From positions 25,511-89,510 of IMG/VR virus record IMGVR_UViG_3300021963_000077: a stretch of 64,000 nt of DNA; one strand, given 5' to 3'. This stretch comes from a virus. Below the pieces are notes generated by a model. The model saw only the letters and a list, made by a program, of their open reading frames with translations, made no database searches and was not told the origin of the DNA. This document shows positions 2,744-30,460 of the stretch, in pieces (the stretch's first letter is position 1; every line of letters starts with the position of its first letter). A program made the position numbers and the translations under genes.

Positions 2744-5700
2744 GGTTCCTCACCTATGCGCATTGTGGTATTTAGGTTACTAGTGCTTAGGTACTGTTTT
2801 GTGCGATCATCAAAGATTTCCACAACCCAATTACCATTAGGACTCATGGCCTTGCGTGCTAGTAGCACTGGTTCACCGTCTGAATCATTAGCCCACAGGC
2901 TGAACTCATTAAAGTTACTCATTTCCATAGCCATAATATTTCGGAGATTTGCTTGAATTATGTCTACGTACTCTTCTGGCACTGATCTTCCAGTTTCTTG
3001 CTTTCTATTTCTTATGCGCGATAGCAAAACATCTCTATCACCAACGAAATAGTGCGCTTCAATTTTGTATCCAGCACGAGTCAGTCTGTCTAAAGTTCCT
3101 GGATCGTTGTTGAATTGACCACTTGAGTCAAAGACAACATCAAGCTCTTTTCTGATGGCTTCCTGGATGGTTGCGAATGCAATGTTTTGAGATTCCGTAT
3201 GTGTTGCACCAGCAGCCGATGAGTTGCCTCTTGATATATAGCCGTTGTACTCAGGTATTAATTGTTTCATTTCGTCAATGTCAACATGAGCTGCTTCACG
3301 ACGAGAAGGAATTCTCCCATCAAAACCATTAAGGCGTTGAGTTGTTTTTCCAGAACCTGGGGCGCCCCCAATGATAATCGCACGCTTTCTTAGCGTTGTC
3401 GGGTCGGTGCTATCTCTTTTCTTTGTTACGTAGTCAGTTATGCCACGCATAATTTCACGCCATACATTGTCGTAGCGCGAATCAGTAACTTTTCTTCCTC
3501 CAGCGCCATACTTTCCCATAGTGTGCTGACCACTCTGGTAGTCGCGTTCACTGAAGGTACTAGGCATCCTCTTGTCAATGTCAAGCATTTCATTGAGTTT
3601 GTAAGACGGCTGTGCCTGCATGGATCCAGATGGCCGACGTCCAGATGGTGTAACTATTGAACCCTTTGGAACAGAGCCACCAATTTTGTCTAGATAAGCC
3701 AGCGCGCTAATTTCTACAGGTGTAATTGACGATGTGCGCGTTCTTGCAGTTGACGCCATTGGCTTACTTGAGTAGTTACGCGTAGACATTGCACCAGATA
3801 TAAATCTGCGATACATGGGGTTATCAAGAAGTGCTTGATCTTGTGCTTTTCTAGCCTGAATAGCTTTTCTGTATTCAGTTGGCGACAGTGCCCTAACCGC
3901 ACCATCTGCTCGTTCCTCTGCGCGCTTGCGCATTTCCTCAAGCTTTGTCTTTTCATCTCTTAGTCTGTCAACTTTGGTATCTAGGCCATGGAATAAACCT
4001 CTTGTGCCACTACCAACTTCAGCATACTCATCAAGTTGCTGAATTAACTTCATAAACGTCGGGTTAGTATCTACTGCCCACTGATACATCCTAAAAGCAA
4101 AATCTTCCGACGACTCCCCATCTCCGCGGACTGGTTTTGTCTCGTAGAGCCAAGATCCAAGAACCATTGCCCGTGTGTATGCACGACGCGAAGCTTGATA
4201 TTCAGCCGATGCTTGATTGCGCGCATTTTTTACTCTGTCAAGCTTCCTATTTAGGCGACGGATCTTTTCATCAATTGCCTTTATTGAGCGAGGAACAGTT
4301 GCTCCTAAAGCATCAATCTCGGCATCAATCTCAGCATTTGCCTTGTTCACCTCATATGCATCACGGCGCTTGATCCATGAACGCTCAGCTGCATTTATTG
4401 CACGTTCAACGTCATCCTTGTCCATTCCGGACTCTTGTCCAGCTTTAAGCAAGGCGCTGCGAAGGATGCTACGTGGTGTTGAATACTCATCAGCTAGCTC
4501 TTGCAACCAAACATCTTCAGATGTGAATTGATTCCACAGATCTGCTCGCTTCTGTTGCGATGCCTTTGACCTTCCACTCCACGCATTTCTAAGTTGCTTG
4601 CGTTTTTCTTGGCTTGTAGAAATCTCGTCCGAGATGTCATCCCATGTTCGGTCATCATCGTCAAGGTCGCTATCAATGGCCGCCAACATTTTGTCCCAGT
4701 CAATTGACTCTGGATCCTTTAATTCTGGTGGCTCCGGTGCATATCTGTTTGGCTGATCCTCTATCCACTCACGCTCAACCCATGTTGGATTTGCAAATGG
4801 TGAGTCTTTCCAAATATCGTATGAATTAATTGCGTCATCAAAGAATGATTCATCGTCTTTAGCGGCTTGCTCGACTGATTCAATTAGCTCTTCATAAGCA
4901 CGCTCGTACTCATCCTCAACCAGACGCTCCAAGGCATCGTCCCATGGATCTTGATCGGAGCTTGGTGGAGGCGTTACCGACATTGCTCCAGCTATGCGAC
5001 GCTTAGACATTGACCCACTGACATTTTTGTTTTTTCGTGGTTCGCGTAGGTCTTCATCTTCATACCGAGCTGCAACCGCATCACCAAACGATTGAGCAAC
5101 AAGGGAGCGCAATGAATTCTTATCGTCTTCACTGAGGTCATATATTGCTGCTAGCTTTGAAAAGCTATCAAAGTCTTCAGGAAGATTAAGTTGACCGCTC
5201 TCTGGATCAAGGTATCCAGAACGTAACTCGTTTATTATTGAATAAAGCTTTGATTGTTGTGCTTTTTGTTGCTCTGGACTTAACGCATCTTCACCATCAG
5301 GATTATCAATCCTTCTAAGACTTGCTCGCATTTCGTCAGGCGTAGCGCTCAATATTTCTTTGGGTGACCTAAAACCAAATACTGCCTCCAACCTAGAAGC
5401 AGGAAGACTTTCAAGTTTTTCAGACGATACAAAACCAATGGCTTCAAATTGGCTCTCTATGTTTTTGAGTTTTCTATTGTCGCCTGGTTTACCGCTAAAA
5501 ATTGATGGCTCATCAATATATGGAGAATGCATCCATACTTCACCCTTTTGCGAATGGGTGATTGTAAAGCCTTGATCAATTGCTTCATTAACCCATTTCT
5601 TAAGCTTTGGATCTTGAATACGTTTCATTGCTTGGGCGGTTGTTTCTGGCTGTGGAGTCGTTCGTGTTCCACGACGCAGCTGTGCAATATCTTCAACCCT

Positions 5701-6345
5701 CAGAGCACCAGATATACGGCGAGGCCGTACCGCTGATGGTATTACTCTTGGCGTTGATGGGCGCTCAAATGCAGTTCCCTCTTGCACTAGACCATCTGAA
5801 TCACCATCAACAGCATTTGGATCATATGGTTCAGTATTTCTAGATATACGGCGAAGCTTTCTTCCCAGTGCTTTAGTATCCTGCGTTTGACCAGACTTTG
5901 AAGATTTGCTCTTCCATGGGTGACCTTCAGGCAGCAGGTCCGAATCTCCAACATAACGAAGATTTGTTGGTTTACCCTTATCAAGCATTTTGAGGAATGC
6001 GTTTACGCGTCCGTATGCCCACTGGTTGCGAGACATGCCTGGTCTGTGTGAGCTTGAATAAGCACCAGCGCCGCGCCTAAATACCGCCTTTAGCGTACCA
6101 ACGCTTGCCATGGCGTGACTTGGCCGGCCAAGTTCAGACATCTTCTTGTTGTGGATACGTACTTTTACCTGAAGTGCTCTAACTATGTCTTGTGACAGAT
6201 CTATATCTTTTGCGCTTGACGCAGAAGACGCTGAACCTCTCTGGTTTTTAGAGGATCCAACGATTCGTTCGGATGGTTTTGATGGGGTTGCAGCTAGGCG
6301 GTCTTTTCTAGCCTTGCGCATTTTTTTGTTATTTTCACTCATCAT
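2740..6345 (-). CDS. Modular polyprotein: N-terminal HRPG/WAYGRV domain, DGD cassette, HicA-like domain, C-terminal Zeta-toxin-like P-loop kinase
   Basis: GGAPGSGKTT, HVDIDEMKQLIPEY, VVFDSS, RIRNRKQETGRSVP (Zeta-like). AIDQGFTITHSQKG...PGDNRKLKNIESQFEAIG (HicA-like). Five SG[AS]M-type linkers. Confidence 0.75.
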   Translation of the reverse strand: MMSENNKKMRKARKDRLAATPSKPSERIVGSSKNQRGSASSASSAKDIDLSQDIVRALQVKVRIHNKKMSELGRPSHAMASVGTLKAVFRRGAGAYSSSHRPGMSRNQWAYGRVNAFLKMLDKGKPTNLRYVGDSDLLPEGHPWKSKSSKSGQTQDTKALGRKLRRISRNTEPYDPNAVDGDSDGLVQEGTAFERPSTPRVIPSAVRPRRISGALRVEDIAQLRRGTRTTPQPETTAQAMKRIQDPKLKKWVNEAIDQGFTITHSQKGEVWMHSPYIDEPSIFSGKPGDNRKLKNIESQFEAIGFVSSEKLESLPASRLEAVFGFRSPKEILSATPDEMRASLRRIDNPDGEDALSPEQQKAQQSKLYSIINELRSGYLDPESGQLNLPEDFDSFSKLAAIYDLSEDDKNSLRSLVAQSFGDAVAARYEDEDLREPRKNKNVSGSMSKRRIAGAMSVTPPPSSDQDPWDDALERLVEDEYERAYEELIESVEQAAKDDESFFDDAINSYDIWKDSPFANPTWVEREWIEDQPNRYAPEPPELKDPESIDWDKMLAAIDSDLDDDDRTWDDISDEISTSQEKRKQLRNAWSGRSKASQQKRADLWNQFTSEDVWLQELADEYSTPRSILRSALLKAGQESGMDKDDVERAINAAERSWIKRRDAYEVNKANAEIDAEIDALGATVPRSIKAIDEKIRRLNRKLDRVKNARNQASAEYQASRRAYTRAMVLGSWLYETKPVRGDGESSEDFAFRMYQWAVDTNPTFMKLIQQLDEYAEVGSGTRGLFHGLDTKVDRLRDEKTKLEEMRKRAEERADGAVRALSPTEYRKAIQARKAQDQALLDNPMYRRFISGAMSTRNYSSKPMASTARTRTSSITPVEISALAYLDKIGGSVPKGSIVTPSGRRPSGSMQAQPSYKLNEMLDIDKRMPSTFSERDYQSGQHTMGKYGAGGRKVTDSRYDNVWREIMRGITDYVTKKRDSTDPTTLRKRAIIIGGAPGSGKTTQRLNGFDGRIPSRREAAHVDIDEMKQLIPEYNGYISRGNSSAAGATHTESQNIAFATIQEAIRKELDVVFDSSGQFNNDPGTLDRLTRAGYKIEAHYFVGDRDVLLSRIRNRKQETGRSVPEEYVDIIQANLRNIMAMEMSNFNEFSLWANDSDGEPVLLARKAMSPNGNWVVEIFDDRTKQYLSTSNLNTTMRIGEEP

Positions 6346-7360
6346 TCAGAACCATTCCAATACTGGTAGAAACAAAGCGCCTACCATCGAGCATCCTTGA
6401 CTGAACCTCAATAAATTGAATTACAGAATTGTTTCTTTGAGACTTTTCTAATATAGCAATACCAGCAGACTTACCACGCATCATTCTTGTGACTCGCCTA
6501 GCAATTCTCTCTTCCGTAGCTCTTTCTCTTCGGTTGCGATCCCTCTGTGCTTGAGGTCCAATTCCTCGCCTACGACGATAATCGGATTCATTTGTGCACG
6601 GCATCCAAGCAACGCCACCACTAGTAGTTGAATATCTACGAATACCAATGCACCCGAGCTCGCGCGACCTCTTCAAGGCCGATGTCTGATTATCAAACAC
6701 ATCAGGATCCCCAGGACGGATTATCATAGGAACACCAAGAGAGTCCTTAACGTTGACAACCGTGCGAGTCGGCCATGCTGATTTCTGCGAACCCCTAGAG
6801 CGCCTATTTGGAAGATTGTCCCTCATTGCATCAAGATGTCGGATGCCTTCAACATCTTGTTCCTTTAGCACTCTGAGTACCGTTCTTAACCTCTTTATGC
6901 CTTCTTCGGTGAAGTTCATTGAGAGAGTTTCATCATCCTTTTTTACTGCGCCAGCTTGCTTGATTGCCGCAATTGCGCGCATCAGTGAGCGCCGGCGTTC
7001 TCGAGACTGGGTTTTGGAGTCTCCATACTCAAATTTCGGATCATTTAGAGCATCTTGCAGATACACCATCATGTCCGTGGAAAACTCATTCCATTCTCGC
7101 ATTGATATTCCAGATACATTAAATGTCTCTGGTTTGGCCGGCGAACGCGAATATAAGTCCTCATCAGGCTCACTATCTAGGTCCAAGTCTCCTAGAGCAT
7201 CACTTAGTTGAGGCTTTGGCGGGTTAAATCTACCCCAAGACATTGCTCCAGAAACTCTTGGTTTAGCAGGTCTTTGAAAAGGGGTTGCATCCTGAACTAG
7301 TCCGTCATTGTCACCATCAATGGCGTTTGGATCATATCTTTCAAAAATGCGACGTTTCAT
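6335..7360 (-). CDS. Protein with N-terminal DGD cassette and LGC...WMPC module
   Basis: MKRRIFERYDPNAIDGDNDGLVQDATPFQRP...RVSGAMS; RELGCIG...WMPC. Confidence 0.7.
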   Translation of the reverse strand: MKRRIFERYDPNAIDGDNDGLVQDATPFQRPAKPRVSGAMSWGRFNPPKPQLSDALGDLDLDSEPDEDLYSRSPAKPETFNVSGISMREWNEFSTDMMVYLQDALNDPKFEYGDSKTQSRERRRSLMRAIAAIKQAGAVKKDDETLSMNFTEEGIKRLRTVLRVLKEQDVEGIRHLDAMRDNLPNRRSRGSQKSAWPTRTVVNVKDSLGVPMIIRPGDPDVFDNQTSALKRSRELGCIGIRRYSTTSGGVAWMPCTNESDYRRRRGIGPQAQRDRNRRERATEERIARRVTRMMRGKSAGIAILEKSQRNNSVIQFIEVQSRMLDGRRFVSTSIGMVLNDE

Positions 7361-7644: not shown

Positions 7645-10394
7645 TTGTACCACCTAAACATTTCTGGAGTTGTTTTTATATATTGAAGTAATTCCGAGTA
7701 CTCGAACATCATTGATAGATTTGCGTCAGTTAGGCCATTCATTCCGGACTGAGCTCCATAGATGAAGTTAATGTGATGGCGGGCTGCCTCAAACCCAAGA
7801 AGCTCAGCGGCAGCTACTCCGTTTCGCCACTCACCATCTCGGTCAAAACTTAAACCAAAAATGAAATGATTGAGGTCGTGTATATGCTCAAATGGAGCTG
7901 CACCACCAGACGAAAGCAACTTAAACTCTGGATCGCGCATCCAGTCAAGAGCGATATCTAGATATGTACCACTGTCGGATATGCCGTATCGTTCCGATGT
8001 TTCTGGCAATCCAAGCTTTTCACGAATAGCCTTAATAATTGGGTTGTAATACTGAGCCAACTCATTCAGTTTATCTGAGTATGCAATTATTGAATCAGTT
8101 TGTTCTTTTGCGAATCGCCCTGCCTCGGTATCCGCAAACTCAATGTCTAAATTATTGAGCAATCCACGAGGCGTTGTGTCGTAGGGCGGATTTTCCTTTA
8201 CGTACCGATCATGCTCTTCCTTGTCATAGACAGGCGTTATTGGGGTTAGATATTTCATAAGAAAGGTCAAACCTATTCCTAGCCGGTCTGACTTTGGTGC
8301 ATTGTTTATTGTGTAGACATCTTCGCCATCTTTTGTTCTTGCTTTTAGAGTCTTACCATCCTTACTTCTTTCGGGTCTCCAAAATTCAGCAAGTTCTGTA
8401 TCTTTTATTACTTGGTTGAGTATGGCTTCGCTAATTTCACGAGCCTCGTCATCATCGGGCTGGAAAACTTCAGTCTTTATCCTGTCACGGTTTGGGCCAA
8501 ATTTATCGGCTAGGCCAGGTATTTCTGGAAGGCTCATAATTACGGACCCAGAAGGGCCTTCAGCTAGCTCAACCTCTGAAATGCGTTGCTCAGGTTTTTC
8601 AAATACTGGAAAAGCTTTTTCAAAAGCATCTTTTTGCTCTTCGTTCAGTTTTGAGAATGCAGACATTGATGCGGTTACCGCTAGTGGTCGTTCAAATGCT
8701 GTTGAGTCTTGAACTAATCCATCACCATCGCCATCTTCAGCATCTTGATCAAAGCGATCCGTTAGTGATTTTTTCTGAAGAGGAAGTTTTCTATCATCTG
8801 GACATGGTCCGGGATTGTCCCAATAATCCAAATGACCGACATAATGCTTTGTATGAGCCCTGTAGCTTTCAATCATGAACCTTACAGAATTGAACTCTTT
8901 ACAAAGACCAAGAACCTGGAGAGATCTTGCCATTTTCCATATACGCGTTCCATAAACCGAGCTTGGTGACTGACCGTTTGCAAAGTCTGGATTATCAATC
9001 CATTCTTCCTTGTCTAGATCCCACGCCAAGGCAGATGTATAAAGTCTGGCAGCTTCAGCTACAGAGTCAGTAAACTCTTTGTTTTTGCGGAGTTTTTTAA
9101 TGTTGGTTTTGGCTAGGTTGTAGCGTTCTCCATACGCTATTGATCCGCGGTCAATGGGAAATGTCCACCAGTCATAATGCTCTGAGTGAAATTTTTTCCA
9201 GTTTGAATTATTAGCATATTCTTTGAATTTAGCAACTTGTGCTTTTTGATCTTTTATTACTGATTCATCTCCACCATATGGAGCATCATTCCAATAGCGT
9301 TTTTTCTTCTTTTTTGCTCTGAACTTAGAGAGCCAGTTTGACCCAGTTTTTTTCCGTTTTGCTGGTGAGGAAGGGCCTTGTGCGCCAAAATCAAGCGTCA
9401 TCTGCACGGGTTTTGATGGACGAGAGTTTGGAGCATCGGCGGAGCCAAGGGAGTCAATAAATGACTCATCTAGCGCTGTCTCCTCGAGCGCATCGTAGTC
9501 TTCCTGTAGTTCTTTTAACTCTTCTATGGATAGACCCGCAAAATGCGGATACATCCTATTGAGCGTATCTTCACTAATAGATGGGTCAAAACGGTCTGAG
9601 ACATAGTCTTCAAAGTCAATCAAGTCATCTGTAGAAAAAGCATCAATCAGCCTGAATGGCTGAGCAAAATCATCAAGCTCATCTGTTCCAAAAGAATCAT
9701 CCGGTAGCAAGTTTCGGTCAAGAATGTAACCGCGCACAAGATCTGCATGCTGTGAGTCTGGAAGACTTGCTAGATTTGGATAGTAATCAGCTAGAGATTC
9801 TCTATTTTCCCCAGATAATATTGCCTCAACATACTCAGGCACTACATCAAAATCGTCTGAATTTAATTTTGATAGTATCTTTTTATATGCTTTTAAGGCT
9901 GACTCATCCTCGTCATTTATTCTTGCCATTGCCCCGACGATGCGCCTATTTGATGAAGGTCTTTTACCCATACGAGGTTTATCTGGTCTTTGCCAAGATG
10001 TTCCATCTTGAACAAAGCCATCTTCATCACCGTCAATAGCATTTGGGTCAAACCGCTGATTCAGGTTCCGTATGCGTGGAAGAGCCTTTCCAGAAACCTC
10101 AGCACTGACTAGTCCTCCACCTGGGAGGGTATCAATACCTAAAGGGCCACGCTCCGAAAGATTCTCCCAGTTGGAACCACGTTTTTTGCGTTTGGTTTTG
10201 CGATATACCTGATCAGGTATATCGTCGGTAGCCTTGTATTCGCGCTTTGGGTTTGACGTTTCAGCTTCGTTTGAGATTCGCTGAAGAGTTTCGTGCGAAT
10301 CGCACGGCATCCAGTTGCCGTCACCGTCTTGGTGAGCACCAGAGCAGCCTAGATACCCTGCAACCTTAAGAGCTTCCTCTTTACTGCTTGCCAT
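7641..10394 (-). CDS. Modular polyprotein: LGC...WMPC module, two DGD cassettes, OGFr/DUF1810-like domain, C-terminal HDxxH domain
   Basis: 917 aa; HYDWWTFPID...RIWKMARSLQVLG; HIHDLNHFIFGLSFDRDGE. Confidence 0.7.
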   Translation of the reverse strand: MASSKEEALKVAGYLGCSGAHQDGDGNWMPCDSHETLQRISNEAETSNPKREYKATDDIPDQVYRKTKRKKRGSNWENLSERGPLGIDTLPGGGLVSAEVSGKALPRIRNLNQRFDPNAIDGDEDGFVQDGTSWQRPDKPRMGKRPSSNRRIVGAMARINDEDESALKAYKKILSKLNSDDFDVVPEYVEAILSGENRESLADYYPNLASLPDSQHADLVRGYILDRNLLPDDSFGTDELDDFAQPFRLIDAFSTDDLIDFEDYVSDRFDPSISEDTLNRMYPHFAGLSIEELKELQEDYDALEETALDESFIDSLGSADAPNSRPSKPVQMTLDFGAQGPSSPAKRKKTGSNWLSKFRAKKKKKRYWNDAPYGGDESVIKDQKAQVAKFKEYANNSNWKKFHSEHYDWWTFPIDRGSIAYGERYNLAKTNIKKLRKNKEFTDSVAEAARLYTSALAWDLDKEEWIDNPDFANGQSPSSVYGTRIWKMARSLQVLGLCKEFNSVRFMIESYRAHTKHYVGHLDYWDNPGPCPDDRKLPLQKKSLTDRFDQDAEDGDGDGLVQDSTAFERPLAVTASMSAFSKLNEEQKDAFEKAFPVFEKPEQRISEVELAEGPSGSVIMSLPEIPGLADKFGPNRDRIKTEVFQPDDDEAREISEAILNQVIKDTELAEFWRPERSKDGKTLKARTKDGEDVYTINNAPKSDRLGIGLTFLMKYLTPITPVYDKEEHDRYVKENPPYDTTPRGLLNNLDIEFADTEAGRFAKEQTDSIIAYSDKLNELAQYYNPIIKAIREKLGLPETSERYGISDSGTYLDIALDWMRDPEFKLLSSGGAAPFEHIHDLNHFIFGLSFDRDGEWRNGVAAAELLGFEAARHHINFIYGAQSGMNGLTDANLSMMFEYSELLQYIKTTPEMFRWYK

Positions 10395-10396
10395 GG

Positions 10397-10786: not shown

Positions 10787-10788
10787 GA

Positions 10789-18758: not shown

Positions 18759-18759
18759 T

Positions 18760-19452: not shown

Positions 19453-19853
19453 TGCTCATCCAGTTCTTTCAATAATTTTTCAAGCTGTTTGCGGGAACCA
19501 TCTGGGAGGTTTTTGGCAATTTGGCGCAATTTAGCAAACTGTTCTGGCGATGCTTTTATCGAGTTAAGCTCCGTATTTCTAAGCTCAGAACTTGGACTAA
19601 CTGCGAATACATCTTTTATTCCACTCACTACATTAGCATCTTCAATAATCCCAGAAATGTCAGAAGCAGACATTGGCCTAGATCTCGCGCGATCTGAAAT
19701 TTGTGGCTTGAAGCGATCCATTGAGTCATTGAATCCAGACTTATTAGGCTCGTATCCACCGCTCTTTACGCTCTTTGGCGGCTTAACACTTACCAAGGAG
19801 TCTTTTGAACTAGACAGTTCCTCGTAAAGTTTTTCATGTGCTCTGCTACTCAT
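19449..19853 (-). CDS. Small hypothetical protein
   Basis: Start ATG 19853 in ATGA overlap with the 1445-aa ORF stop. Confidence 0.55.
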   Translation of the reverse strand: MSSRAHEKLYEELSSSKDSLVSVKPPKSVKSGGYEPNKSGFNDSMDRFKPQISDRARSRPMSASDISGIIEDANVVSGIKDVFAVSPSSELRNTELNSIKASPEQFAKLRQIAKNLPDGSRKQLEKLLKELDEQ

Positions 19854-22800
19854 TTGATACCCAACACTTCTATTGCGTCTGGATGAATCGTATTGACCCA
19901 ACGACGACCACGATACGCCCAGTCAAGCCACTTTACAATGTTTTGCTTGACAAGTTCTGGGATCATGTAATCCTTTATGCCGTGGCCCGACATTAGGAGA
20001 GCATGTAGTTCGGCAAATATTTCCTGTGGTTCAATATCGCCTGGCTCAACCATCAGACCGCCATAATACGGTCGTTTTGATCCGTAAGAACTAAATAATT
20101 TAGCTACATCTAATAAAGCCCGGCGATCAATTGGATCAGTAATTCCGTCCCATGTCCTTTGGCTTATTTCCCTGAAAGCTGCGCCTTGATAGCCGTCAAC
20201 TCCTAATTGAGTTGAAGGATCATAGAACATTGCAATGTCAAGATCGTAGCTGTAAGCCTCGTATGAATTTGATGGTGCTAGTTGCACATTTGTAACGGGA
20301 TCATCAGGGAAGAATTCTTTATATATGTCTGATTCACGGATGTCTTCCATGAAAATTGGATCAGTAAGTATTGCCATTACTTCGTCTACAACTCGCTCGT
20401 CGGCAATATTCTTCTTGCCATCTGGACCCATGTCTTTTCCGTAAAGTGAATGATCAGCTTCAAATGGAACAACAGTATAAATAATTTCTGAGTTCATAAT
20501 AAAATCACGCAGATCAATCATATTCCGACCCGTGATTCGTTCTGCTTTTAGATTTGCTAGAGCATTGATGTACTCTGTTCTTTTTTGCTGAAGTGCTTTA
20601 GCGATTGATACATCTTTTGTCTGGCCTAAAGAAACTTCAAGTTTTGCAATCTCTAGTGGCAAATCTAGTATTGCGTCTTCAATCTTGGGAAGCAATGCTT
20701 CATAACGATCCGCTTGAATTTTTATAGTCGGCAGTATTTCTCTAGTAATTGTTCCAGTAAATATTTGTTTAGCATAACGCTTAGCCTTTGATCTAACGGT
20801 ATCAACAATTGCTTTGTCGCGTTCTAGTGCAGTTGTTCCAGACATTGACTCGTCATATGACAGAGATTCGGCCAAAGCATGGGCCATTTCATGGTGTGCA
20901 ATGTTCATGACTGCACCCGTTTGCGCAAGAGAGTGAATTTGACGGCGCTCAGCCTTGCTCATTCCACTATTTCCGGAAGAGTAAGCTGTTTTCATTATCT
21001 GTGTACCAATATTGTCGCTTGTTGAGTCTTTGTTGGATATGTAAACAGGCACAGTTTGTCCTGTTCGCGGGTCTACGTACATACGCATTGAATCACCGGA
21101 ATGCTGACGAACAAGAGCTCCATCTGTGGCCAATTCCATAAGAAGCCACTTTGCTCCAGTTGAAGTGGAGCGATCAACGCCACCACTCCTATCAAACTTG
21201 GAAACATTGGATTCAACAACGCCAGTCACTCCACCAAGAGAATCGCTTTGCTCGCGTATTGCGTAGCCCCAATCCTTTAATTCTGGTACTTGCATTGCTA
21301 CTGAAATAACGCCAGCAAAAGCTGATATTTCTTCATTTGTTAAATCTCGATCATTACTACCAAAACCGGTGAATTTGATTTCTCTAAATATTTGCGCCAA
21401 TGCGCTCTTTGCGTCGCTCACTTTTCGCAGTGGGCCATATTTTGATTCAACGCTTAATATTGTGTCATCAACATATTTTCTGACATTATCAGCAGACATG
21501 CTTGGAGTTTGCTTGATTCTGTCATTATCTGCAATACTCCAATCTTTTATTTTGCCAGTCATTTCATCAATCATGTCGCGCAGTAATTGCTCAATATCGT
21601 TGAATGATGATCCTTCTGATTTTTTAGGTACAGGCCTTGACGTAGAACCTTGCTCAACGTCTCTCAACTTCTCGCTTACCGATGCAACACCTACTGGGCG
21701 CTCAAACTGCGTTGAATCTTGCACCAAGCCGTCGCCATCACCATCTTCAGCTCTTGGATCAAACCTGGCCGTTAAAAGCCTGCCGATGCGACGCATCTTT
21801 CGCGGCATCGCTTTTGCCTCTATCTCAACAAAATGTTCTTTTGTCTGTCCGACATTAAGTCCCATGAGCCTAAATACTTTGTATCTGCCGTCGCGTTTTA
21901 CATCGTTGATTAAGTTCAATTGACCGCTACTCATAAGCCTGTCAAGAATGATCATATTATGAAGATCTGCAGCCCATACACCAAACTGCTTGCCGTCAGT
22001 TTTTTCAAACCCAGCCATGCTGTCTAGGATTTCGTCAATACCAATATTGTCGCCGGCAGACAAACCCATTCGCTGTCTAAAGATCTGCTTAAGTTGACCA
22101 AGGTATGTATCAGCTGCGTCAACTAAAATATCTTTCGCACTATCCTTGAGGCCGATGGTGTCTAGTTCTTGTCCTTTTTCTTTAGGGCTTTGCGGTCTGC
22201 TTGCGTAGAACTCCCCAGTGCGACCATCTTGCCTTACGTTATTTACAGTTGAAATATCTGATGTGTAGTTATTGATCTTTGGTGACCTGTATCTACTGCC
22301 CTGATTTCTGAGTCGTGATTGATCTCTACGCTCAAGTGAATCAGACAAGAGCGCTCCAGCGCGTCTCTTGGCTCTGTTTACACGTCCACCTTGCTGTGGT
22401 GAAAAACGTGGACCACCAAGACTGCGTGGAACTCCATCAGCATCAACTGGAACATTGAAACGATCCGCAAATTCTTGTTGAATTATTTTCTCTAGGGTAT
22501 TTTTATCTACTGCACCGATAAGGCTGGGATCTGCGTCTGCCAGCAATGAGTAGATCATTTTATAAGCTGCATAAAACTCAGCATTTGCTTCTATGCCAAA
22601 ATTGCCACTTTTGTCAGTTGCGTGTGAATATTCCGACCCGACGATGTTGGCAAGGTTTTTAAGATTATCCTGTATCCCTTGGCTTGGATTTACGAGATCG
22701 TATAGCTCACTATATATTGCTTCAACGATTTGCTCACGTTTAGTTTCATCAGTTTCTAGTGGAAGTGCATCCACTAAAGGCTTGATATTGGGATGTGAAC

Positions 22801-24187
22801 TTATATCTAGAACTTTACGATTTACTAGTTCGCCAGTTGCTGTATCAAGAACTTGCATATCCTTGGTTTCAGTGATTCCTGCCTGGTTTAGCTTTGCTCT
22901 AAAGTCAGCAAAATGACCGAACTCATGAGTTCCTACTTCATGTCCAAATGTCCGCATATCTGGAGGTGTTGCAAAAAGGTGCCTAGGATTGTCACCCGAT
23001 ACATATTGATATGTACCTCGTAGTTGCTCTGGTGCCATCAGGAGCCCAAACATTCCATCGCCATCAATTGTTAATTGAGCTAAGTCGCCACCAATCTCCT
23101 GTGCGTCAACTAGCTTCATTGAGCCAAGCATTTGAGACCACTCGCGATTATCGTAGGCTTCTAGTAGAAATGCCTCAATAAAACCCCACCTAAACTTCAC
23201 ATAGTCAGCAACTTCTTCGGCGTCAGAAAATTTTTCCAAAGGAATATTCAGAAAGTCATCTATTTCTTTTTCTGGCACATTAGGAAATGACTCCCTCATT
23301 GCTTTTTTCATCTGACGAGCAGAGCGAAGGCTGCGACGGCCAGAGATTAAGCTGCGTCTTCCAAGACCTTGGTAAGCAGCTTTGCGTCTAAGGGCAGCGC
23401 TTTCCTTGAGAAGCCGTTTGCGTAGGCTCAGCTCTTCGTCACCAACGACCATATCGCCGTTTGGCGTAGTGGCACGTAGACCTACTGCAACAGATCCATT
23501 TATTGATTGTTTTGCGACCCGAGCTGCTCCACGCGCAGCTCCACCAGCAACAGTTCTAGCTGAAGGAATCATGCAATTTGATAACTGTAGGTCAGTGAAC
23601 TGACCGCCGCCTGGGGTTTCCTCTGGACACCTCAAACGCCCTTGATCGTCAAATGGGATGTTCCTTGATCTAGCAATTCGCAGCAACAGGTTGGGGAGTT
23701 TTGAATCATCCCCGAGTGTCATTCCCAAAACGCCTTTAGCGTTAAAAGTCTGACCGTTAACGACAAACTTATCTGGGTCTTTTATTAGGCCATAACCAGT
23801 TTCGTCATTATTTGGGCCGAGGCGACATACGACCATTTTGTGCCCAGGCGGAACTAGTGGTACTGGATCACCTTTTTTGAATGTTGATACAAAGTGATCG
23901 TAGGGGTGTAGTTTTTTTTCTGCCTTAGCTTTTGGCGTGGCATCGGTAATCGTCTTCTCTGGCTGCTTTTCTGCTTTGTGGCGCATGCCAAAGGATGATC
24001 CTTTAGCTGCAAGTATGCGCGATTCGGCCCACCGAGCTGTGTCTACTGCGGTACTTAATTCGCTCGCTTCAAAACTCATTTTTATATGCGAGCCAACAGA
24101 CTTGGTGCTAAGGCGCCAAGCGTCAGTAGACGCCGTGTTGCCATCATTGCTATCCGCCGGCGAGCCCTCATGAATACCATCAGGCAC
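19850..24187 (-). CDS. Modular polyprotein with RCP..GGQFT motif, two HExxH zincin-like domains and one DGD cassette
   Basis: GTG start after GGAGG SD. THEFGH...EANAEFYA and HHEMAH...QEIFAEL. Confidence 0.75.
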   Translation of the reverse strand: MPDGIHEGSPADSNDGNTASTDAWRLSTKSVGSHIKMSFEASELSTAVDTARWAESRILAAKGSSFGMRHKAEKQPEKTITDATPKAKAEKKLHPYDHFVSTFKKGDPVPLVPPGHKMVVCRLGPNNDETGYGLIKDPDKFVVNGQTFNAKGVLGMTLGDDSKLPNLLLRIARSRNIPFDDQGRLRCPEETPGGGQFTDLQLSNCMIPSARTVAGGAARGAARVAKQSINGSVAVGLRATTPNGDMVVGDEELSLRKRLLKESAALRRKAAYQGLGRRSLISGRRSLRSARQMKKAMRESFPNVPEKEIDDFLNIPLEKFSDAEEVADYVKFRWGFIEAFLLEAYDNREWSQMLGSMKLVDAQEIGGDLAQLTIDGDGMFGLLMAPEQLRGTYQYVSGDNPRHLFATPPDMRTFGHEVGTHEFGHFADFRAKLNQAGITETKDMQVLDTATGELVNRKVLDISSHPNIKPLVDALPLETDETKREQIVEAIYSELYDLVNPSQGIQDNLKNLANIVGSEYSHATDKSGNFGIEANAEFYAAYKMIYSLLADADPSLIGAVDKNTLEKIIQQEFADRFNVPVDADGVPRSLGGPRFSPQQGGRVNRAKRRAGALLSDSLERRDQSRLRNQGSRYRSPKINNYTSDISTVNNVRQDGRTGEFYASRPQSPKEKGQELDTIGLKDSAKDILVDAADTYLGQLKQIFRQRMGLSAGDNIGIDEILDSMAGFEKTDGKQFGVWAADLHNMIILDRLMSSGQLNLINDVKRDGRYKVFRLMGLNVGQTKEHFVEIEAKAMPRKMRRIGRLLTARFDPRAEDGDGDGLVQDSTQFERPVGVASVSEKLRDVEQGSTSRPVPKKSEGSSFNDIEQLLRDMIDEMTGKIKDWSIADNDRIKQTPSMSADNVRKYVDDTILSVESKYGPLRKVSDAKSALAQIFREIKFTGFGSNDRDLTNEEISAFAGVISVAMQVPELKDWGYAIREQSDSLGGVTGVVESNVSKFDRSGGVDRSTSTGAKWLLMELATDGALVRQHSGDSMRMYVDPRTGQTVPVYISNKDSTSDNIGTQIMKTAYSSGNSGMSKAERRQIHSLAQTGAVMNIAHHEMAHALAESLSYDESMSGTTALERDKAIVDTVRSKAKRYAKQIFTGTITREILPTIKIQADRYEALLPKIEDAILDLPLEIAKLEVSLGQTKDVSIAKALQQKRTEYINALANLKAERITGRNMIDLRDFIMNSEIIYTVVPFEADHSLYGKDMGPDGKKNIADERVVDEVMAILTDPIFMEDIRESDIYKEFFPDDPVTNVQLAPSNSYEAYSYDLDIAMFYDPSTQLGVDGYQGAAFREISQRTWDGITDPIDRRALLDVAKLFSSYGSKRPYYGGLMVEPGDIEPQEIFAELHALLMSGHGIKDYMIPELVKQNIVKWLDWAYRGRRWVNTIHPDAIEVLGIK

Positions 24188-24204
24188 GTCGCCTCCAGTT
24201 TTAA

Positions 24205-25838: not shown

Positions 25839-26032
25839 TACGACTCCTTGTATTGCATTGACTTTGTCAGGCAACCTTTGGGATTAGTGCATCCTCCACA
25901 TGGTTGCATTCTTTTTTCGCCTGTAACCATGCAGTGATACTTATGTTGAAGATTGTTTGAACCTATTGGTTTAGAATAACCCATTTGAGCCCCACTCTGT
26001 GGGTACTTTGGTGATTTCTTATTCTTTGCCAT
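25838..26032 (-). CDS. Small Cys-rich protein
   Basis: HCMVTGEKRMQPCGGCTNPKGC. Confidence 0.55.
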   Translation of the reverse strand: MAKNKKSPKYPQSGAQMGYSKPIGSNNLQHKYHCMVTGEKRMQPCGGCTNPKGCLTKSMQYKES

Positions 26033-26076
26033 GTGGATCAAAATCCTAATCTGTATAACGACTGGATCATTTTATA

Positions 26077-27150
26077 CTAACCCGAATACCGTAGCTTTGG
26101 TGGCTTCTTGATCCGAGGTCTAGCTTTTTCAGCATTCCTCAATGCTTCGAGCATTTTGGCTCTGTTGATCTTGACATCCACGATTCGCATACCAAATTTT
26201 TCAGCTGCTTCCGCCTCGGAGTGATTGCTGAGGTAGAGCAAGAAGCTTTTCGCATTGGGTGTCAATACTTGTGGATGATTATTAATTAAATTAATGATTT
26301 CTGTATTAACGCCTTCTAGTTTCTGATCTGCTTCAGTATCAATGATGCGATTGTCTGGAGTGTTGAGATTAAATTCTTCGTTATATCGTTTAATAAATTT
26401 ACCGACTAACGCTTGGCTAACTTTTAAAGCCTCAGCAATTTTTTCGTATGATATTCCGTACTGTGAAAAAGTGTACATTAATTGACCTTTTTCCAGAGAC
26501 GATAAATCACTTAACCCAATGTCAAAATCCCTTACAGATCTGTCCACGGTTGATTTGTCTACACCGAATGCCTTGGAAACTTCATCTTTGCTAAATCCAT
26601 ATTTTCTAGCAACTGAAATAATTTTACGCTTTTGCTTAAAAACGCTTCTAGCAGAAATGTTATTTTTTTTCAAAACGACAGAAACATAGTCGCTTGTCAC
26701 TCCAACATCCTGCGCAATTTGATTTGGCCCAATGCCGAGTCTTGCCTGTCTTACGATTTCTTTGATGCGCCCGCTGCGATCCACATTTGAAGTGCTTACA
26801 TTTCCTAGCTTTTGTTTATTACGTGAGGCGCGCCTAACGGTCGCAATGCTTACTCCATATTTCTTAGCTAGGGCTTTTGCTATCTCGGCTCGCTCTTTTG
26901 GAGTTTTGCCTTTGGCTATTTCTTCGGCCATTTCGTTGCTTCTACGCTCAAATTCAGCTACAGAAGATGCTTGGTTTACAGTTCTTCCCACTCCTGTAGT
27001 CATGCTTCCGGAGACCGCGCGACGAACTGAGGGTCGTTCAAACTGTGTTGCGTCTTGAATTAGGCCGTCGCCGTCACCATCAAATGCGTTTGAATCAAAC
27101 CTATCGGTAAGGCGCCCTAGGCGGCGTGCGTCGCCTGTGCGCCTCAGGCT
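26077..27150 (-). CDS. Multi-HTH protein; -1 frame extension carrying a DGD cassette (likely expressed as a frameshift fusion with 27144..27503)
   Basis: Five HTH-like repeats (e.g. LAKKYGVSIATVRR, IAQDVGVTSDYV). The frame is open for 49 codons upstream of ATG 27003, back to the slippery site, with no ATG/GTG/TTG in that stretch. Confidence 0.7.
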   Translation of the reverse strand, partial: SLRRTGDARRLGRLTDRFDSNAFDGDGDGLIQDATQFERPSVRRAVSGSMTTGVGRTVNQASSVAEFERRSNEMAEEIAKGKTPKERAEIAKALAKKYGVSIATVRRASRNKQKLGNVSTSNVDRSGRIKEIVRQARLGIGPNQIAQDVGVTSDYVSVVLKKNNISARSVFKQKRKIISVARKYGFSKDEVSKAFGVDKSTVDRSVRDFDIGLSDLSSLEKGQLMYTFSQYGISYEKIAEALKVSQALVGKFIKRYNEEFNLNTPDNRIIDTEADQKLEGVNTEIINLINNHPQVLTPNAKSFLLYLSNHSEAEAAEKFGMRIVDVKINRAKMLEALRNAEKARPRIKKPPKLRYSG

Positions 27151-27156
27151 TTTAAA
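27110..27156 (-). other. Programmed -1 ribosomal frameshift signal (T TTA AAA plus GC-rich stem-loop)
   Basis: Heptamer 27156-27150 is in frame; 5-nt spacer; AGGCGC (27144-27139) pairs with GCGCCT (27115-27110), with an inner GGCG/CGCC stem. Confidence 0.7.
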
Positions 27157-27503
27157 TCAAGACCGCTAGCAACAGACTTGACTACAGCACTAATTGCATC
27201 TATTGCGTCTTCGTCCAGGTAATCCATATCCTCGATAACTAAAGACTTTGTTTCCTGCTGTATGGAAACACCGTAGTAATCAAGCACGGGCTCAAGAAAA
27301 GATTTAGCCCCCATCAGGGCCTCGTCGTCGCCAGTAATCACAAGGTTTACCTTGTTCTTGCCGCCATCAGATGAATCTATGACTTCCGCCAAAAGCTCTA
27401 AGGCTTGTCTTAATTTGCCCATATTCCTGTTGCTAATAACGCGACCACTCTTTACGTCAATGTCGTTTCCATATGGTGTTGAAAGAAAAATTTTAGTTTC
27501 CAT
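27144..27503 (-). CDS. Head-module protein with KSGRVISxxN motif
   Basis: Start ATG 27503 (TAATG overlap with protease stop). VKSGRVISNRNMGKLRQAL resembles the KAGRVLS motif seen in C-terminal extensions of HK97-type proteases. Confidence 0.65.
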   Translation of the reverse strand: METKIFLSTPYGNDIDVKSGRVISNRNMGKLRQALELLAEVIDSSDGGKNKVNLVITGDDEALMGAKSFLEPVLDYYGVSIQQETKSLVIEDMDYLDEDAIDAISAVVKSVASGLDLKA

Positions 27504-30460
27504 TATCGCCTGTTCCCATAATCTCGCCATAACTGTTGAAGTCTGTTTAAATCAGCTGTTGATATTTGACCATTGTCAAAGCGCTCTAAAATTCTCTGAA
27601 CTATTTGAAATCCGCGATTTTTCCTAGCCCAATCAATTGATTGATTCTGCTGTCTTGTGAGAACCCTTTTGCCTATTTTTCCACTTTGCAGTTGCTTAAG
27701 CATGTCGTCTAGCCCTTGGCCAGATCTGGCCCCAAACTGTTTTGCGGTGTCATAGTCGAGTTCATACTGCTCAACACTGCCATCACCCATATTGAATATG
27801 ACGCGGTTTGTCTGTGGGTCATATGCGGCATCCGATACTCGCCTGCTACCTCGAGTATCAAACTTCATTAAATAACTAGGAATTGCTGGCCTGTCTGGAT
27901 TATCTTGACCCGATCCAGTCATTGACCCAGACACGGAGCGCTTGTTCTTGCGACTACGAAGAACGTCTAGGAAATCTTCCACGGCATTGGCTGGGCGAGG
28001 CTCCAAAACTGAGTTTGCGTGGATCCTCTCAGCTTCGCTTTCGCTAACTTTATGTTCTTCCGTCCTACCATTAATCAATGTAAAACGAGCAGTACCAGAC
28101 TCTTTGTCGTAGGTAGCGTCTTTTAGGATTCTTGAACCACGCGTGTCAAATGATGGAGTTTTGTTATCTTTGCTCCATCCAAACTTTTCTAGGTGTTTTC
28201 TAGCCTCTTCGCTAAACCCTGAATATTGCGGCTTGGGGCGATTTGAAATAGATCCAGATACGCGAGGAGTTTTATCTTTTGGGTTATCACCCTCAGTACG
28301 ACGTTTCATAGAGGCAATTCGCATTTCAATTTGCCTAACTTGAGCACGTGTCATATTCATGCGTTGCGATACGTCATCGAGCGACATACCGTCCTCTGTG
28401 CGCATTTTCCAAATTTGATCACGAATTTTCTTGGCTTGGCGCATTTCAGATTGTCTCACCTCTTCACGCGTGATGCCAAAATTCTTCGCAACTTCATCCA
28501 GCGACATGCCGCCTTCTGTGCGCATTTTCCAAATCTTCTCTGGTGTCGGCTTGCCCTTTGCCATTGAACCAGATATCCGCGACCCAACTGGTACTGGTCT
28601 TTCTGGCCGTGGCCCAGGCGTTGGCGTTGGTGCAGGGCTAGGAACCGATGGTCTGACTGGTGGGCGAATTGGCTCTCTTGCTGGCTCCGGAACCTTTCGC
28701 GGTGGATTCATTGGGGGCATCATGCGAGGCGCATTTGGGCGCTCAAATGATGTGCTGTCTTGCACTAAACCGTCTTCGTCCCCATCAATTGCATTAGGAT
28801 CAAAACGATCTGTTGCCATTCTCCCCATACGTCTGAGTTTGCGACCAACAGCCTTCTCTTCTAAGAAGTTAATTGCCGTCAGTAGCGCCTCGTAGCCCTC
28901 TTCTGACATGGAGTCACTGTTTGGAACAACAAGACCATCTTCAAGACTCTTGACATCAAATCCATGATATTTAGCTACAGCACTAGCTACCTCTAGCAAT
29001 TCATCAATTTCGCTTTCGGATTGGATAAATAGATGAATTCCAGGGTTTTCACTCTTGAAAGCATCCCATGACGGCATGTCATCAATGACATATGATTTCC
29101 CACCACCACATCCACAACCACAATCATCCTTAGCCGGCTTCATGGCCACTCCGCCAAATGCCGCTCCAAAGTCATCATTGTCGTCGCCTACATATGCATT
29201 TCCTGGAGCGCTTTGTGGCTTGCCAACAGGCATGTAAATTGTCTCTGGCTTCACCGTTTCAGCATTTCCAAACATGAATTCGCCATCTTCGTAGTGATAG
29301 CCGACTCGGATTGTCTGCATATCTCCGAAGTCGTTCATGAGGTCAAAAATAACCATGTTTTTATCTGCTGTACGGATTTTTACTTTGCCGCCAAACCGTT
29401 GAGAAATAGCCTTGGCAAGGTCGTTAACACGCCCAAATGCTGGATTCATCTCCTCGTCGCCAGTATAGATACGGGATGTGTCGTAGCTAGGGTGGCCTTT
29501 TTTCTTCACATTCTGGTATCTCTCAAGGAGTCGCCGGCCTTTAGCTGCAAGCTCTGCTGCATCGGATGCATTTTTAGGAACTGGTTCACCCCATGCAGCG
29601 GCAGCTAGCGCTAGACGAGTCGGCTTGCCATTTTTGCCGACAAGTGGGCCAGATGGGTTTGTATAGAATCGCGTCAAGAACGAGCCTTTACGACGCATTT
29701 TCTCTGGTGTGTCAGCTGGGCCCTTGACGCCTGGCTTTAGATTTGCGCCTTCCTTCTGCTTAAAGTACTTGCGCCCTGCTGGCGTCAGGCCACCCTTTGG
29801 ATCCCTCAAATTTGCTGATTTGCCTTCAGGCTCAGAAGGCACGCAATTTGGCACCATTTTGCCGTTTTTGCCCTTCTTCATTCCTACCTGCTGGTAACCG
29901 GGCCAGCAAGGACTACCTGCCTTGCTTTCCGGATCGTCGGATTTGATTGAAATTGTGCCAGTCAGCTGATTGGCTCCGTGGAGAACTGGGGAAACCTCAT
30001 AGAGTTCAACCTCTTTAAGGAGATTTGCTTGCTGAACTGGGTCAAATACTGCGTCAAGGGTCTTGTAACCAATTGACCACTCTTGCTCTTCGCCAAAGAA
30101 GGCAACATTATTGAAAGCCTCACGACCACGCTCAGAACGCAAATTAAATTGCACTCTTGCATAAAGTCCACCAATTCCGGCTTTTTTCATCTTTAGCGGT
30201 AGGCGTGGATCATTCGGTGGCACCTCATATATTTCCAGAACCTTACCGATTGGCTCATTCCAGTTATGACCCCAAACAACTCTCGGCTTACGTCTTTTAA
30301 GACTTGCTCCAAAACAGTTCGGGAGGCAAATATCGCCAACAGAATCTTTATTGCCGATGCCAGCAACGAAGCATTCAACGATGCCCTGCGCTTCGTCAAC
30401 CCCGATTTGAGCTGGAATTGACTTGTATTCTGTTGCAAATAGCGATGATTGGTCAGACAT
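27503..30460 (-). CDS. HK97-family prohead protease fused to CWPGY module, GGLT..GR module (DUF6321-like), DGD cassette, 2x sigma70-region-4-like HTH and 2x KTSC-like domains
   Basis: GNKDSVGD, VVWGHNWNEPIGKV, WSIGY, LKEVELYEVSPVLHGAN (His/Ser protease motifs) in the first ~175 aa. Confidence 0.9.
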   Translation of the reverse strand: MSDQSSLFATEYKSIPAQIGVDEAQGIVECFVAGIGNKDSVGDICLPNCFGASLKRRKPRVVWGHNWNEPIGKVLEIYEVPPNDPRLPLKMKKAGIGGLYARVQFNLRSERGREAFNNVAFFGEEQEWSIGYKTLDAVFDPVQQANLLKEVELYEVSPVLHGANQLTGTISIKSDDPESKAGSPCWPGYQQVGMKKGKNGKMVPNCVPSEPEGKSANLRDPKGGLTPAGRKYFKQKEGANLKPGVKGPADTPEKMRRKGSFLTRFYTNPSGPLVGKNGKPTRLALAAAAWGEPVPKNASDAAELAAKGRRLLERYQNVKKKGHPSYDTSRIYTGDEEMNPAFGRVNDLAKAISQRFGGKVKIRTADKNMVIFDLMNDFGDMQTIRVGYHYEDGEFMFGNAETVKPETIYMPVGKPQSAPGNAYVGDDNDDFGAAFGGVAMKPAKDDCGCGCGGGKSYVIDDMPSWDAFKSENPGIHLFIQSESEIDELLEVASAVAKYHGFDVKSLEDGLVVPNSDSMSEEGYEALLTAINFLEEKAVGRKLRRMGRMATDRFDPNAIDGDEDGLVQDSTSFERPNAPRMMPPMNPPRKVPEPAREPIRPPVRPSVPSPAPTPTPGPRPERPVPVGSRISGSMAKGKPTPEKIWKMRTEGGMSLDEVAKNFGITREEVRQSEMRQAKKIRDQIWKMRTEDGMSLDDVSQRMNMTRAQVRQIEMRIASMKRRTEGDNPKDKTPRVSGSISNRPKPQYSGFSEEARKHLEKFGWSKDNKTPSFDTRGSRILKDATYDKESGTARFTLINGRTEEHKVSESEAERIHANSVLEPRPANAVEDFLDVLRSRKNKRSVSGSMTGSGQDNPDRPAIPSYLMKFDTRGSRRVSDAAYDPQTNRVIFNMGDGSVEQYELDYDTAKQFGARSGQGLDDMLKQLQSGKIGKRVLTRQQNQSIDWARKNRGFQIVQRILERFDNGQISTADLNRLQQLWRDYGNRR
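28381..28534. repeat. 120-bp-period tandem duplication encoding two sigma-R4-like HTH units
   Basis: gcgacataccgtcctctgtgcgcattttccaaat at 28381 and gcgacatgccgccttctgtgcgcattttccaaat at 28501. Confidence 0.8.

Follow-up and report, generated by a model that had tools for sequence, protein, structure and literature searches.

A lineage-specific peptide tag at the module borders of cargo proteins in a large uncultured family of phages with HK97-type heads

The stretch of DNA analyzed here, hereafter the window, covers 64 kb (positions 25,511 to 89,510) of the 89.5-kb virus record IMGVR_UViG_3300021963_000077 and contains a head gene module on the minus strand, running from approximately 32.8 kb down to 1.1 kb. 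A gene encoding a portal protein fused to a Mu F-like domain and the major capsid protein gene flank an array of genes for cargo proteins, an arrangement that constitutes a portal/MuF packaging context. Seven copies of a conserved cassette, approximately K-x-x-G-R-K-L-R-R-x-G-R-x(4)-R-F-D-P-N-A-x-D-G-D-x-D-G-L-V-Q-D-x-T-x-F-E-R-P and called the DGD cassette after its core, are found in the window, all of them within the head module. Downstream of these cassettes recurs a short peptide with the core SG[SA]M, and comparison of sequences indicates that, in this peptide, the lineage has its own version of a junction tag found across a large uncultured family of phages with HK97-type heads.

All 12 sites named in a preliminary description of this DNA were found on the minus strand, within a few bases of where that description had placed them (Table 1). 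It had written the motif as [RK][IV]SG[SA]M[STA]; the recurrence is real, but the pattern is too strict and matches only 2 of the 12 sites. The core SG[SA]M fits seven, and the remaining five are one-residue variants. A better consensus has Arg or Lys at -2/-3 and Leu, Ile, or Val at -1, followed by [ST]-G-[SA]-M-[SGA], and the fuller form of the tag in this lineage is [RKG]-[LIV]-[ST]-G-[SA]-M-[SGA]. A six-frame scan of the window returned SG[SA]M seven times, always in the frames of the cargo proteins and in no other frame. The motif is enriched relative to the rest of the proteome: the cargo region (9,368 amino acids) holds seven instances of [ST]G[SA]M compared with a mean of 0.34 in 500 shuffles that kept the composition of each protein (maximum, 3; none of the 500 reached 7), and the remaining 19,987 amino acids of the 89.5-kb genome hold none, compared with 0.74 expected. 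With a looser pattern, the cargo region contained 10 instances (0.33 expected) and the rest of the genome contained 2 (1.29 expected). The copies differ in their codons (TCT, AGT, or TCC for Ser; GGT, GGG, or GGA for Gly), so conservation acts on the peptide and not on a DNA repeat. What stands of the original interpretation is thus a real delimiter under protein-level selection, located in linker-like sequence between modules and after the cassette.

Viral contigs were scanned with an alignment of the cassette, which yielded 485 confirmed relatives, and 76 loci were kept. These loci represent one large phage group with the same gene order, in which the capsid protein is 70 to 94% identical and the S78 prohead protease domain 75 to 98% identical to that of the window. 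At least two instances of [ST]G[SA]M in long plus-strand open reading frames (ORFs) were present in 12 of the 76 loci (L001 to L005, L011, L012, L015, L021, L031, L032, and L055). Four of these are near-identical relatives (89 to 97% identity); in the other eight, the portal is 71% identical, the capsid protein is 74 to 81% identical, and the cargo content is largely different. The tag recurs in these relatives in cargo proteins of different makeup. The 12 loci hold 46 instances, of which 38 are nonredundant. Because the search pattern set the four core positions and left the flanks free, the flanks are the informative part: Pro is found at -6 in 13 of the 38, Arg or Gly at -3, Arg, Lys, or Gly at -2 in 28, Leu, Ile, or Val at -1 in 34, and Ser, Gly, or Ala after the Met in 33. 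The first core position is Ser in 31 instances and Thr in 7, and P, R, K, S, G, D, and N abound in the surrounding sequence. Individual sites persist with small changes; the RISGSMA site of the window reads RTSGSMA in three close relatives, and the RVSGSIS site is RVSG[SA]IS in relatives.

Enrichment of 4-mers in the remaining loci brought out other forms of the tag, here called dialects. These include G[LMI]RS (68 nonredundant instances, often G-G-[LM]-R-S-[RS]-R), GFAS (32 instances, often R-G-F-A-S-[SR]), R-G-L-S-S-G (GLSS/LSSG; 19 to 20 instances, compared with 0.42 expected), G-S-K-S-[ST]-T (9 instances, compared with 0.63 expected), and a further, degenerate dialect, G-[FLM]-[AS]-S. The dialects are nearly exclusive per locus: the long ORFs of the 12 SG[SA]M loci contain no G[LMI]RS and no GFAS, and the other 64 loci contain five [ST]G[SA]M in total. 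A profile-free search with the S78 domain against 1.84 billion protein representatives returned 150 proteins, of which 145, with lengths of 368 to 5,358 amino acids, were examined; all matches of the S78 protein searches were family members at 68% identity or higher. Typing with simple patterns, at thresholds of our own, placed 46 of the 145 proteins in a dialect (21 [LF]SSG, 12 G[LMI]RS, 6 GFAS, 5 GLAS, and 2 SG[SA]M), and the remaining 99 were mostly short or without these patterns. With only 2 of the 46 typed proteins, SG[SA]M is a minor dialect. The S78 domains of lineages with other dialects (LSSG, GMRS, and GFASR) are 74 to 87% identical to that of the window. Among the related loci L006 to L076 and proteins P0087 to P0231, the S78 domain is fused to tails, the whole protein reaching up to 5,358 residues, and up to 21 tags are present in one protein (P0180). 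A motif without a function of its own, either a compositional accident or one duplicated linker that was inherited, would be favored somewhat by linkers rich in S, G, R, and K, which make short S/G words more frequent; however, the composition-keeping shuffles fall far below the observed count, the codons differ between copies, the tag persists in nonhomologous proteins of divergent relatives, and the dialects are exclusive to lineages. Because of the shuffle enrichment and the exclusive dialects, this explanation is very unlikely, close to negligible.

The tags obey a positional rule. The sites had been said to lie downstream of a DGD cassette, which is true for all 12, and when nonredundant cassette-bearing ORFs from five dialect groups were examined, not one of their 119 tags preceded the first cassette, although the residues ahead of it account for 13,793 of the 69,524 (20%; the probability of 0 of 119 under uniform placement is approximately 4e-12). 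ORFs in which no cassette is detectable also hold tags (59 instances, counted with redundancy); the carriers include the zincin proteins (see below) of the eight more distant relatives, in which the tags begin after residue 760. The borders marked by the tags are best seen in the proteins headed by the prohead protease, where residues 1 to 573, through the cassette, are shared by relatives and the rest differs. After a Pro-rich stretch, the tails of these proteins carry one (L003), two (L005), three (L011), or four (L031) modules, every one of which opens with R-x-[LV]-SG[SA]M-[SG], and shared modules retain their own tag. Related phages keep the motif at the borders of different, inserted modules. 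Apart from the tags, the protease tail of the window contains a 29-residue insertion (28330 to 28500) that duplicates one helix-turn-helix (HTH) unit relative to L001, L002, and L012, in which the protein is otherwise approximately 89% identical to that of the window over its whole length; the insertion is not bounded by tags.

Unrelated effector-type domains are combined in single chains. Pfam identifies DUF5824 and Zeta_toxin in the 1201-residue protein and S78, DUF6321, and Sigma70_r4/HTH in the 985-residue protein, and the cargo of relatives adds NUDIX domains and HTH arrays. The Zeta toxin and HTH assignments made in the preliminary description were confirmed in this way, whereas the segments labeled "KTSC-like" and "HicA-like" have no Pfam match at an E value of 0.1 or less. 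Most of the cargo sequence is without any Pfam family, and Pfam therefore sets borders only for the Zeta_toxin and HTH domains. Two AlphaFold2 models, built from shallow alignments with a mean pLDDT (predicted local distance difference test) of 39, are too poor for domain borders, and only their secondary-structure pattern was used, as weak evidence. In this pattern, seven of the eight modeled sites lie in segments predicted to be without secondary structure, and FISGAMS is the only site modeled at the end of a helix. In the 985-residue protein, all three tags are predicted to lie in structureless stretches between helical (HTH) and beta-rich blocks (residues 540 to 639 for RISGSMA, 723 to 750 for RVSGSIS, and 836 to 877 for SVSGSMT). 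In the 1201-residue protein, four of the five tags are in segments without predicted secondary structure: RISGALR would be in coil with a helix starting right after it, the tandem NVSGSMS/RIAGAMS would be in coil (model residues 279 to 316), and RPSGSMQ would likewise be in coil.

Table 1. Positions of the head-module genes, cassettes, and tag sites, and of the tape measure gene, in the window
Feature	Position	Strand	Remarks
Portal fused to Mu F-like domain	30554-32794	minus	First gene in head-module order
985-aa protein	27503..30460	minus	S78 prohead protease, DUF6321, mid region, cassette, tag-delimited cargo; Pfam PF04586 and PF19846
DGD cassette of protease-headed protein	28736..28852	minus	
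RISGSMA tag	28559..28579	minus	Protease-headed protein; after cassette and Pro-rich linker, before HTH pair
RVSGSIS variant tag	28244..28264	minus	Between HTH pair and first beta-rich repeat unit
SVSGSMT tag	27917..27937	minus	Between the two repeat units
Multi-HTH protein, after a 128-aa ORF	26077-27156	minus	Cassette-bearing N-terminal extension open in -1 frame
AVSGSMT tag	26998..27018	minus	Directly after cassette, before multi-HTH protein
Acidic 482-aa protein	24426-25874	minus	Head module
1445-aa protein	19850..24187	minus	HExxH twice; N-domain (residues ~60 to 560) is candidate reader
RIVGAMA variant tag	9924..9944	minus	After cassette 1 of 917-aa protein
AVTASMS weak variant	8661..8681	minus	After cassette 2 of 917-aa protein; conserved in L004
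RVSGAMS tag	7238..7258	minus	After N-terminal cassette of 341-aa protein; identical in L004
1201-aa cargo protein	2740..6345	minus	Cassette, five tags, C-terminal Zeta-toxin-type kinase domain
RISGALR variant tag	5698..5718	minus	After cassette of 1201-aa protein; RVSGSLT in L004
Tandem tags NVSGSMS and RIAGAMS	4978..5025	minus	NVSGSMS, 5005-5025; RIAGAMS, 4978-4998
FISGAMS tag	3784..3804	minus	
RPSGSMQ tag	3616..3636	minus	~70 residues ahead of Pfam Zeta_toxin match
Major capsid protein	1117..2511	minus	Junction of delta domain and mature part without tag
Six further cassettes (D-G-D-x-D-G cores)	27064-27081, 21728-21745, 10017-10034, 8718-8735, 7301-7318, 5791-5808		
Tape measure protein (1325-aa ORF)	45824-49801	plus	phrog_167
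RRLSGSLN, tag-like (Leu for Met)	45941..45964	plus	Residues 40 to 47 of tape measure protein

The tag also reaches a tail protein. When the N-termini of the tape measure proteins of the window and ten relatives were compared, the exact dialect of the respective genome was found at the equivalent place in 4 of the 11 (LSGSM in L081, SGMRS in L084, GLAS in L088, and GFAS in L089), and a near form was found in two more, the window and L085 (TFAS). This correspondence, some 40 to 50 residues from the N-terminus, suggests that the reader of the cargo tags may also remove or handle a short leading piece of the tape measure protein. The pair L088 and L089, in which GLAS and GFAS occupy near-identical tape measure N-termini, was considered as a case of a dialect switch and rejected, as both genomes use the degenerate G-[FLM]-[AS]-S tag. 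A tag shared by cargo and tape measure, both of which leave through the tail, would also suit a motif that is never cut and instead docks the protein to the capsid interior, to DNA, or to a chaperone of packaging or ejection, or that serves as a spacer for the passage of unfolded chains through the tail. This alternative agrees with the character of the tag as a short linear motif in linker-like, basic sequence, with the alternation of Ser and Thr, which suits a modified or hydrogen-bonding residue, and with the fact that no cut has been seen. Docking, however, would give the tag no reason to coincide with each module border or to be confined to the region downstream of the cassette, and dialect turnover implies a fast-coevolving partner, of which none is evident other than the zincin. 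Docking without cutting is, on balance, rather unlikely.

The obvious protease of the head module is the S78 prohead protease, which matches PF04586 with 37.6 bits (cutoff, 21) over residues 27 to 170 and is 40 to 42% identical to annotated capsid maturation proteases of Gordonia phages. In phage HK97, the S78 protease gp4 matures the capsid protein gp5 between Lys and Ser. The window resembles HK97 in having an S78 protease and a capsid protein whose N-terminal delta domain is followed by K/SSVGQ (PVHK/SSVGQ); across relatives, the delta domain is followed by a conserved x-[ST]-[VIL]-G-[QDE]-x-F, and we take this junction of delta domain and mature part to be the S78 cut site by analogy with HK97. 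It differs from HK97 in that the tag is another sequence in other proteins. None of 21 aligned capsid sequences from six dialect groups contains its dialect tag at this junction, and SG[SA]M does not occur in the portal or capsid protein; the motif is therefore distinct from a K/[AS] site, as had been asserted. The K/[AS] rule itself, the companion claim of the preliminary description, is shakier than it had assumed. The junction reads PVQR-QSVGQ in L004 (93% identical), the closest relative, and the residue before the Ser or Thr elsewhere is Q, G, Y, N, T, or S. Cleavage between Lys and Ser as the rule for the capsid was rejected on these grounds, and the loss of the Lys in L004 makes a strict K/[AS] rule for the prohead protease doubtful.

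The S78 domain does not vary with the tag. Its identity between dialects reaches 93% (G[LM]RS versus GFAS) and 96 to 97% (GFAS, GLAS, and LSSG), its identity within one dialect falls to 74%, and N/H117 is the only position of the domain at which the SG[SA]M group has a residue of its own. The tag has one form per genome, changes from genome to genome, and is present in a tail protein, which calls for a reader that varies and is not confined to the procapsid, and on the sequence comparisons the S78 protease is unlikely to be the specific reader. It would nevertheless be compatible with a looser scheme in which S78 cuts the tags inside the procapsid by reading generic features alone, a Gly with a small residue (mostly Ser) three positions after it, and in which the residues that distinguish the lineages are drift spread by duplication of modules. 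The layout, with the cassette first and the tags after it, suits a chain that is first targeted to the head and then cut within it; protease and cargo are parts of one fused protein; G-x-x-S is common to all dialects; the residue after the putative capsid junction is also Ser or Thr; and the GSKS dialect contains Lys-Ser, like the K/S junction of the window. As precedent, the gp245 protease of SPN3US is described as cutting 14 sites in nine head proteins after AXE (PMC10052503). Against this scheme stand the capsid junction, which lacks the tag in every lineage, the presence of the tag in a tape measure protein, which is outside the head, and the near constancy of the S78 domain between dialects. 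Duplication, moreover, cannot explain one dialect across the proteins of a genome, including the orthologous tape measure site. Cutting by S78 is accordingly an unlikely explanation.

A candidate reader is encoded two genes after the prohead protease, next after the gene for the acidic 482-residue protein. The 1445-residue product contains HExxH, and a syntenic large protein with an RCP..QFT..C block and HExxH is present in every lineage examined. When 11 N-domains from several dialects were aligned, no variation was seen at H362, E363, H366, or E474, and the combination of HExxH with a downstream Glu reads as a predicted Glu-type zincin. The RCP block (window region 23590 to 23610; R-C-P-x-G-T-P-A-A-N-Q-F-T-D-x(5-6)-C), approximately 160 to 240 residues from the N-terminus, is the best-conserved part of the zincin across lineages (L003, L011, L019, L020, L022, L035, L038, L062, and L072). 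The zincins of L019 and L072 are 34% identical, compared with 72% for the portal and approximately 93% for the S78 domain of the same pair, and full-length similarity to the zincin of the window is limited to the SG[SA]M group. Presence or absence of the zincin was tried as a discriminator of dialects and rejected, since every lineage has the syntenic protein with the RCP block and HExxH. A predicted complex of the zincin N-domain with a 40-residue tag peptide, run without controls, scored 0.02 against a mark of 0.32, a value that weighs neither for nor against binding. The encoded zincins were one of two enzymes suggested in the preliminary description, and the zincin is favored here as the best candidate reader.

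The other suggestion was a protease of the host, which would cut the tags after ejection, the dialects then mirroring different hosts. Both cargo and tape measure enter the host, and host enzymes are known to process phage proteins, as in staphylococcal phage 80alpha, where the host protease Prp trims the capsid and scaffold proteins at a sequence that mimics its site in ribosomal protein L27. In the family described here, however, at least five dialects among phages with S78 domains 74 to 97% identical would demand equally varied host enzymes, no host is known, and a conserved phage zincin is at hand. A host protease is therefore improbable, with only a slim chance of being the reader.

Downstream of the zincin gene, the array continues with proteins of 709, 1984, 917, 341, and 1201 residues, in that order. 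One tag, AVSGSMT, sits upstream of the first ATG of the 308-residue HTH ORF and is translatable only if a -1 frameshift joins it to the preceding 128-residue ORF. The end of the latter (27144 to 27160, minus strand) reads GAT TTA AAA GCC TGA, with the heptamer T TTA AAA just before the stop codon and a GC-rich stretch after it. The -1 frame reads on from the heptamer as F-K-S-L-R-R and into the cassette, the tag, and then the multi-HTH protein, for which no separate start codon exists ahead of the tag. The arrangement looks like a programmed -1 frameshift that would attach cargo to a small head protein. In the acidic 482-residue protein, Cys residues cluster near the N-terminus and the C-terminal half is 73 to 96% conserved across the family; the protein has no family match except a weak one to PepSY, and the position of its gene suggests a scaffold or head-core protein. 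A 62-residue acidic ORF (2555 to 2743) adjoins the capsid gene and overlaps the gene of the Zeta-toxin-type kinase protein at its end, and it could encode an antidote-like partner.

The closest isolated phages are those of Gordonia (Bendigovirus), Brevibacterium, and Streptomyces, with 40 to 57% identity in the portal, protease, and capsid protein, which hints at an actinobacterial host. A tblastn search of isolated phages with the cassette gave no match, for which the low-complexity filter is probably responsible. In Gordonia phage Hanem, the genes for portal and protease are separated by cargo-like genes that lack the cassette and any enrichment of the tag. The complete genomes of relatives are estimated (CheckV-type estimates) at approximately 137 to 150 kb, and the 89.5-kb record may therefore be partial.

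Several known systems share parts of this organization. As in the polyproteins of RNA viruses with their 3C-type sites, one translation product would be split into modules at a repeated protease site; the enzymes and genome type are unrelated, and here the products would be virion cargo and not replication machinery. The internal proteins of phage T4 (IPI to IPIII and Alt) carry a capsid targeting sequence and are cleaved by gp21, whose code is L/I-x-E. In phiKZ and SPN3US, head and ejection proteins are reported to be cut by gp175 and gp245, respectively, after AXE (PMC10052503, PMC9026906, and PMC5694885). Like these systems, as described there, the family has a short recurrent peptide in proteins presumably bound for the capsid interior, with the presumed targeting element first and many substrates under one rule. 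It differs from them in its HK97/S78-type head, in the absence of the tag from the capsid junction, in the use of the tag to delimit many internal modules and not one N-terminal propeptide, in the marking of the tape measure, and in a tag that turns over among close lineages that share a near-constant prohead protease, the cutting itself being a proposal here. The code of a prohead protease would be expected at the capsid maturation site, where the motif is not found; it recurs instead in cassette-bearing proteins of the head module, which are presumably packaged.

A further parallel is with the polyvalent proteins described by Iyer, Burroughs, Anand, de Souza, and Aravind in 2017 (PMC5512222), giant multidomain proteins encoded beside portal/MuF genes in which zincin-like domains were predicted to release the other domains, in the head or after injection. 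Both features, multieffector chains and the portal/MuF context, are found here. The main text of that paper names no linker or cleavage motif (the word "linker" does not occur in it), and a defined tag, a positional rule, and dialects are what the present family adds. The same source describes DdrB of phage P1 as a protein whose processing precedes or accompanies packaging and is presumably carried out by the metallopeptidase domain at its own C-terminus (PMC5512222). DdrB is similar in that a zinc protease domain in a head-packaged protein is proposed to do the processing; from the account given there, it differs in being a single protein with one cut and without a tag shared across several proteins. 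Literature searches, which did not extend to the supplementary files of Iyer et al. and of the SPN3US papers, where relevant architectures or sites may be listed, found no paper describing such a tag.

Taken together, the layout can be read as follows. Each cargo protein would begin with a conserved N-terminal part, where one is present, continue with a single DGD cassette, and end in a series of swappable modules, the cassette being the probable signal that brings the whole chain into the procapsid. Each module would be preceded by a tag in a flexible, basic linker rich in Pro, Ser, and Gly, and the tag would most likely be the recognition site at which the series is divided into separate proteins by a lineage-specific phage protease, an enzyme that would also trim the tape measure at its N-terminus. 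The favored enzyme is the conserved zinc protease domain, with its HExxH and downstream Glu, and not S78. Cutting would have to wait until after packaging and would take place in the filled head or once the chain has been ejected into the host, because earlier cutting would separate the modules from the cassette before loading. We consider it probable that the tags are cut at all. The joint claim, that a phage-encoded, dialect-specific protease cuts them, with the zincin favored, is evenly balanced. A more specific version, in which the zinc protease is packaged, is ejected with its substrates, and cuts cargo and tape measure only in the host, with the tag coevolving as a private switching code, is tentative and would be held with low confidence.

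A number of observations weigh against reading the tag as the site of a dedicated protease. No cleavage has been observed in this phage family, which has no cultured relative; no isolated phage has a capsid protein match that reaches 60% identity. Several sites in the window are degenerate (VTASMS, RISGAL, and RVSGSIS), the Met is lost at the AVSGSMT site in the close relatives L002 and L012 (SGSM to SGGV), the tape measure is without a tag in 5 of the 11 phages compared, and the structure models, besides their poor quality, place FISGAMS at a helix end. The related loci were all fetched through the cassette and are therefore biased toward cassette-bearing phages, and the typing of dialects depends on our own patterns and thresholds. 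The zincin matches no Pfam, PHROG, or solved-structure family, its fast divergence would be shown equally by any cargo-type protein, and its link to the tag comes from exclusion and synteny only.

If the tags are cut, dozens of separate proteins, including kinase-type toxins, DNA-binding proteins, NUDIX proteins, and many of no assigned function, would be made from few genes under a simple grammar of targeting cassette, then tag, module, tag, module. The proposal carries the caution that the enzyme processing the cargo of a capsid need not be the capsid protease. If it is true, the borders of cargo modules could be called automatically in metagenomic phage genomes by the thousand, and a defined substrate would be available for testing the processing that was predicted for polyvalent proteins in 2017. 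The dialects would then represent naturally orthogonal pairs of protease and site, and under the private switching code, related phages would process only their own cargo, a step that would be hard for the host to block or mimic.

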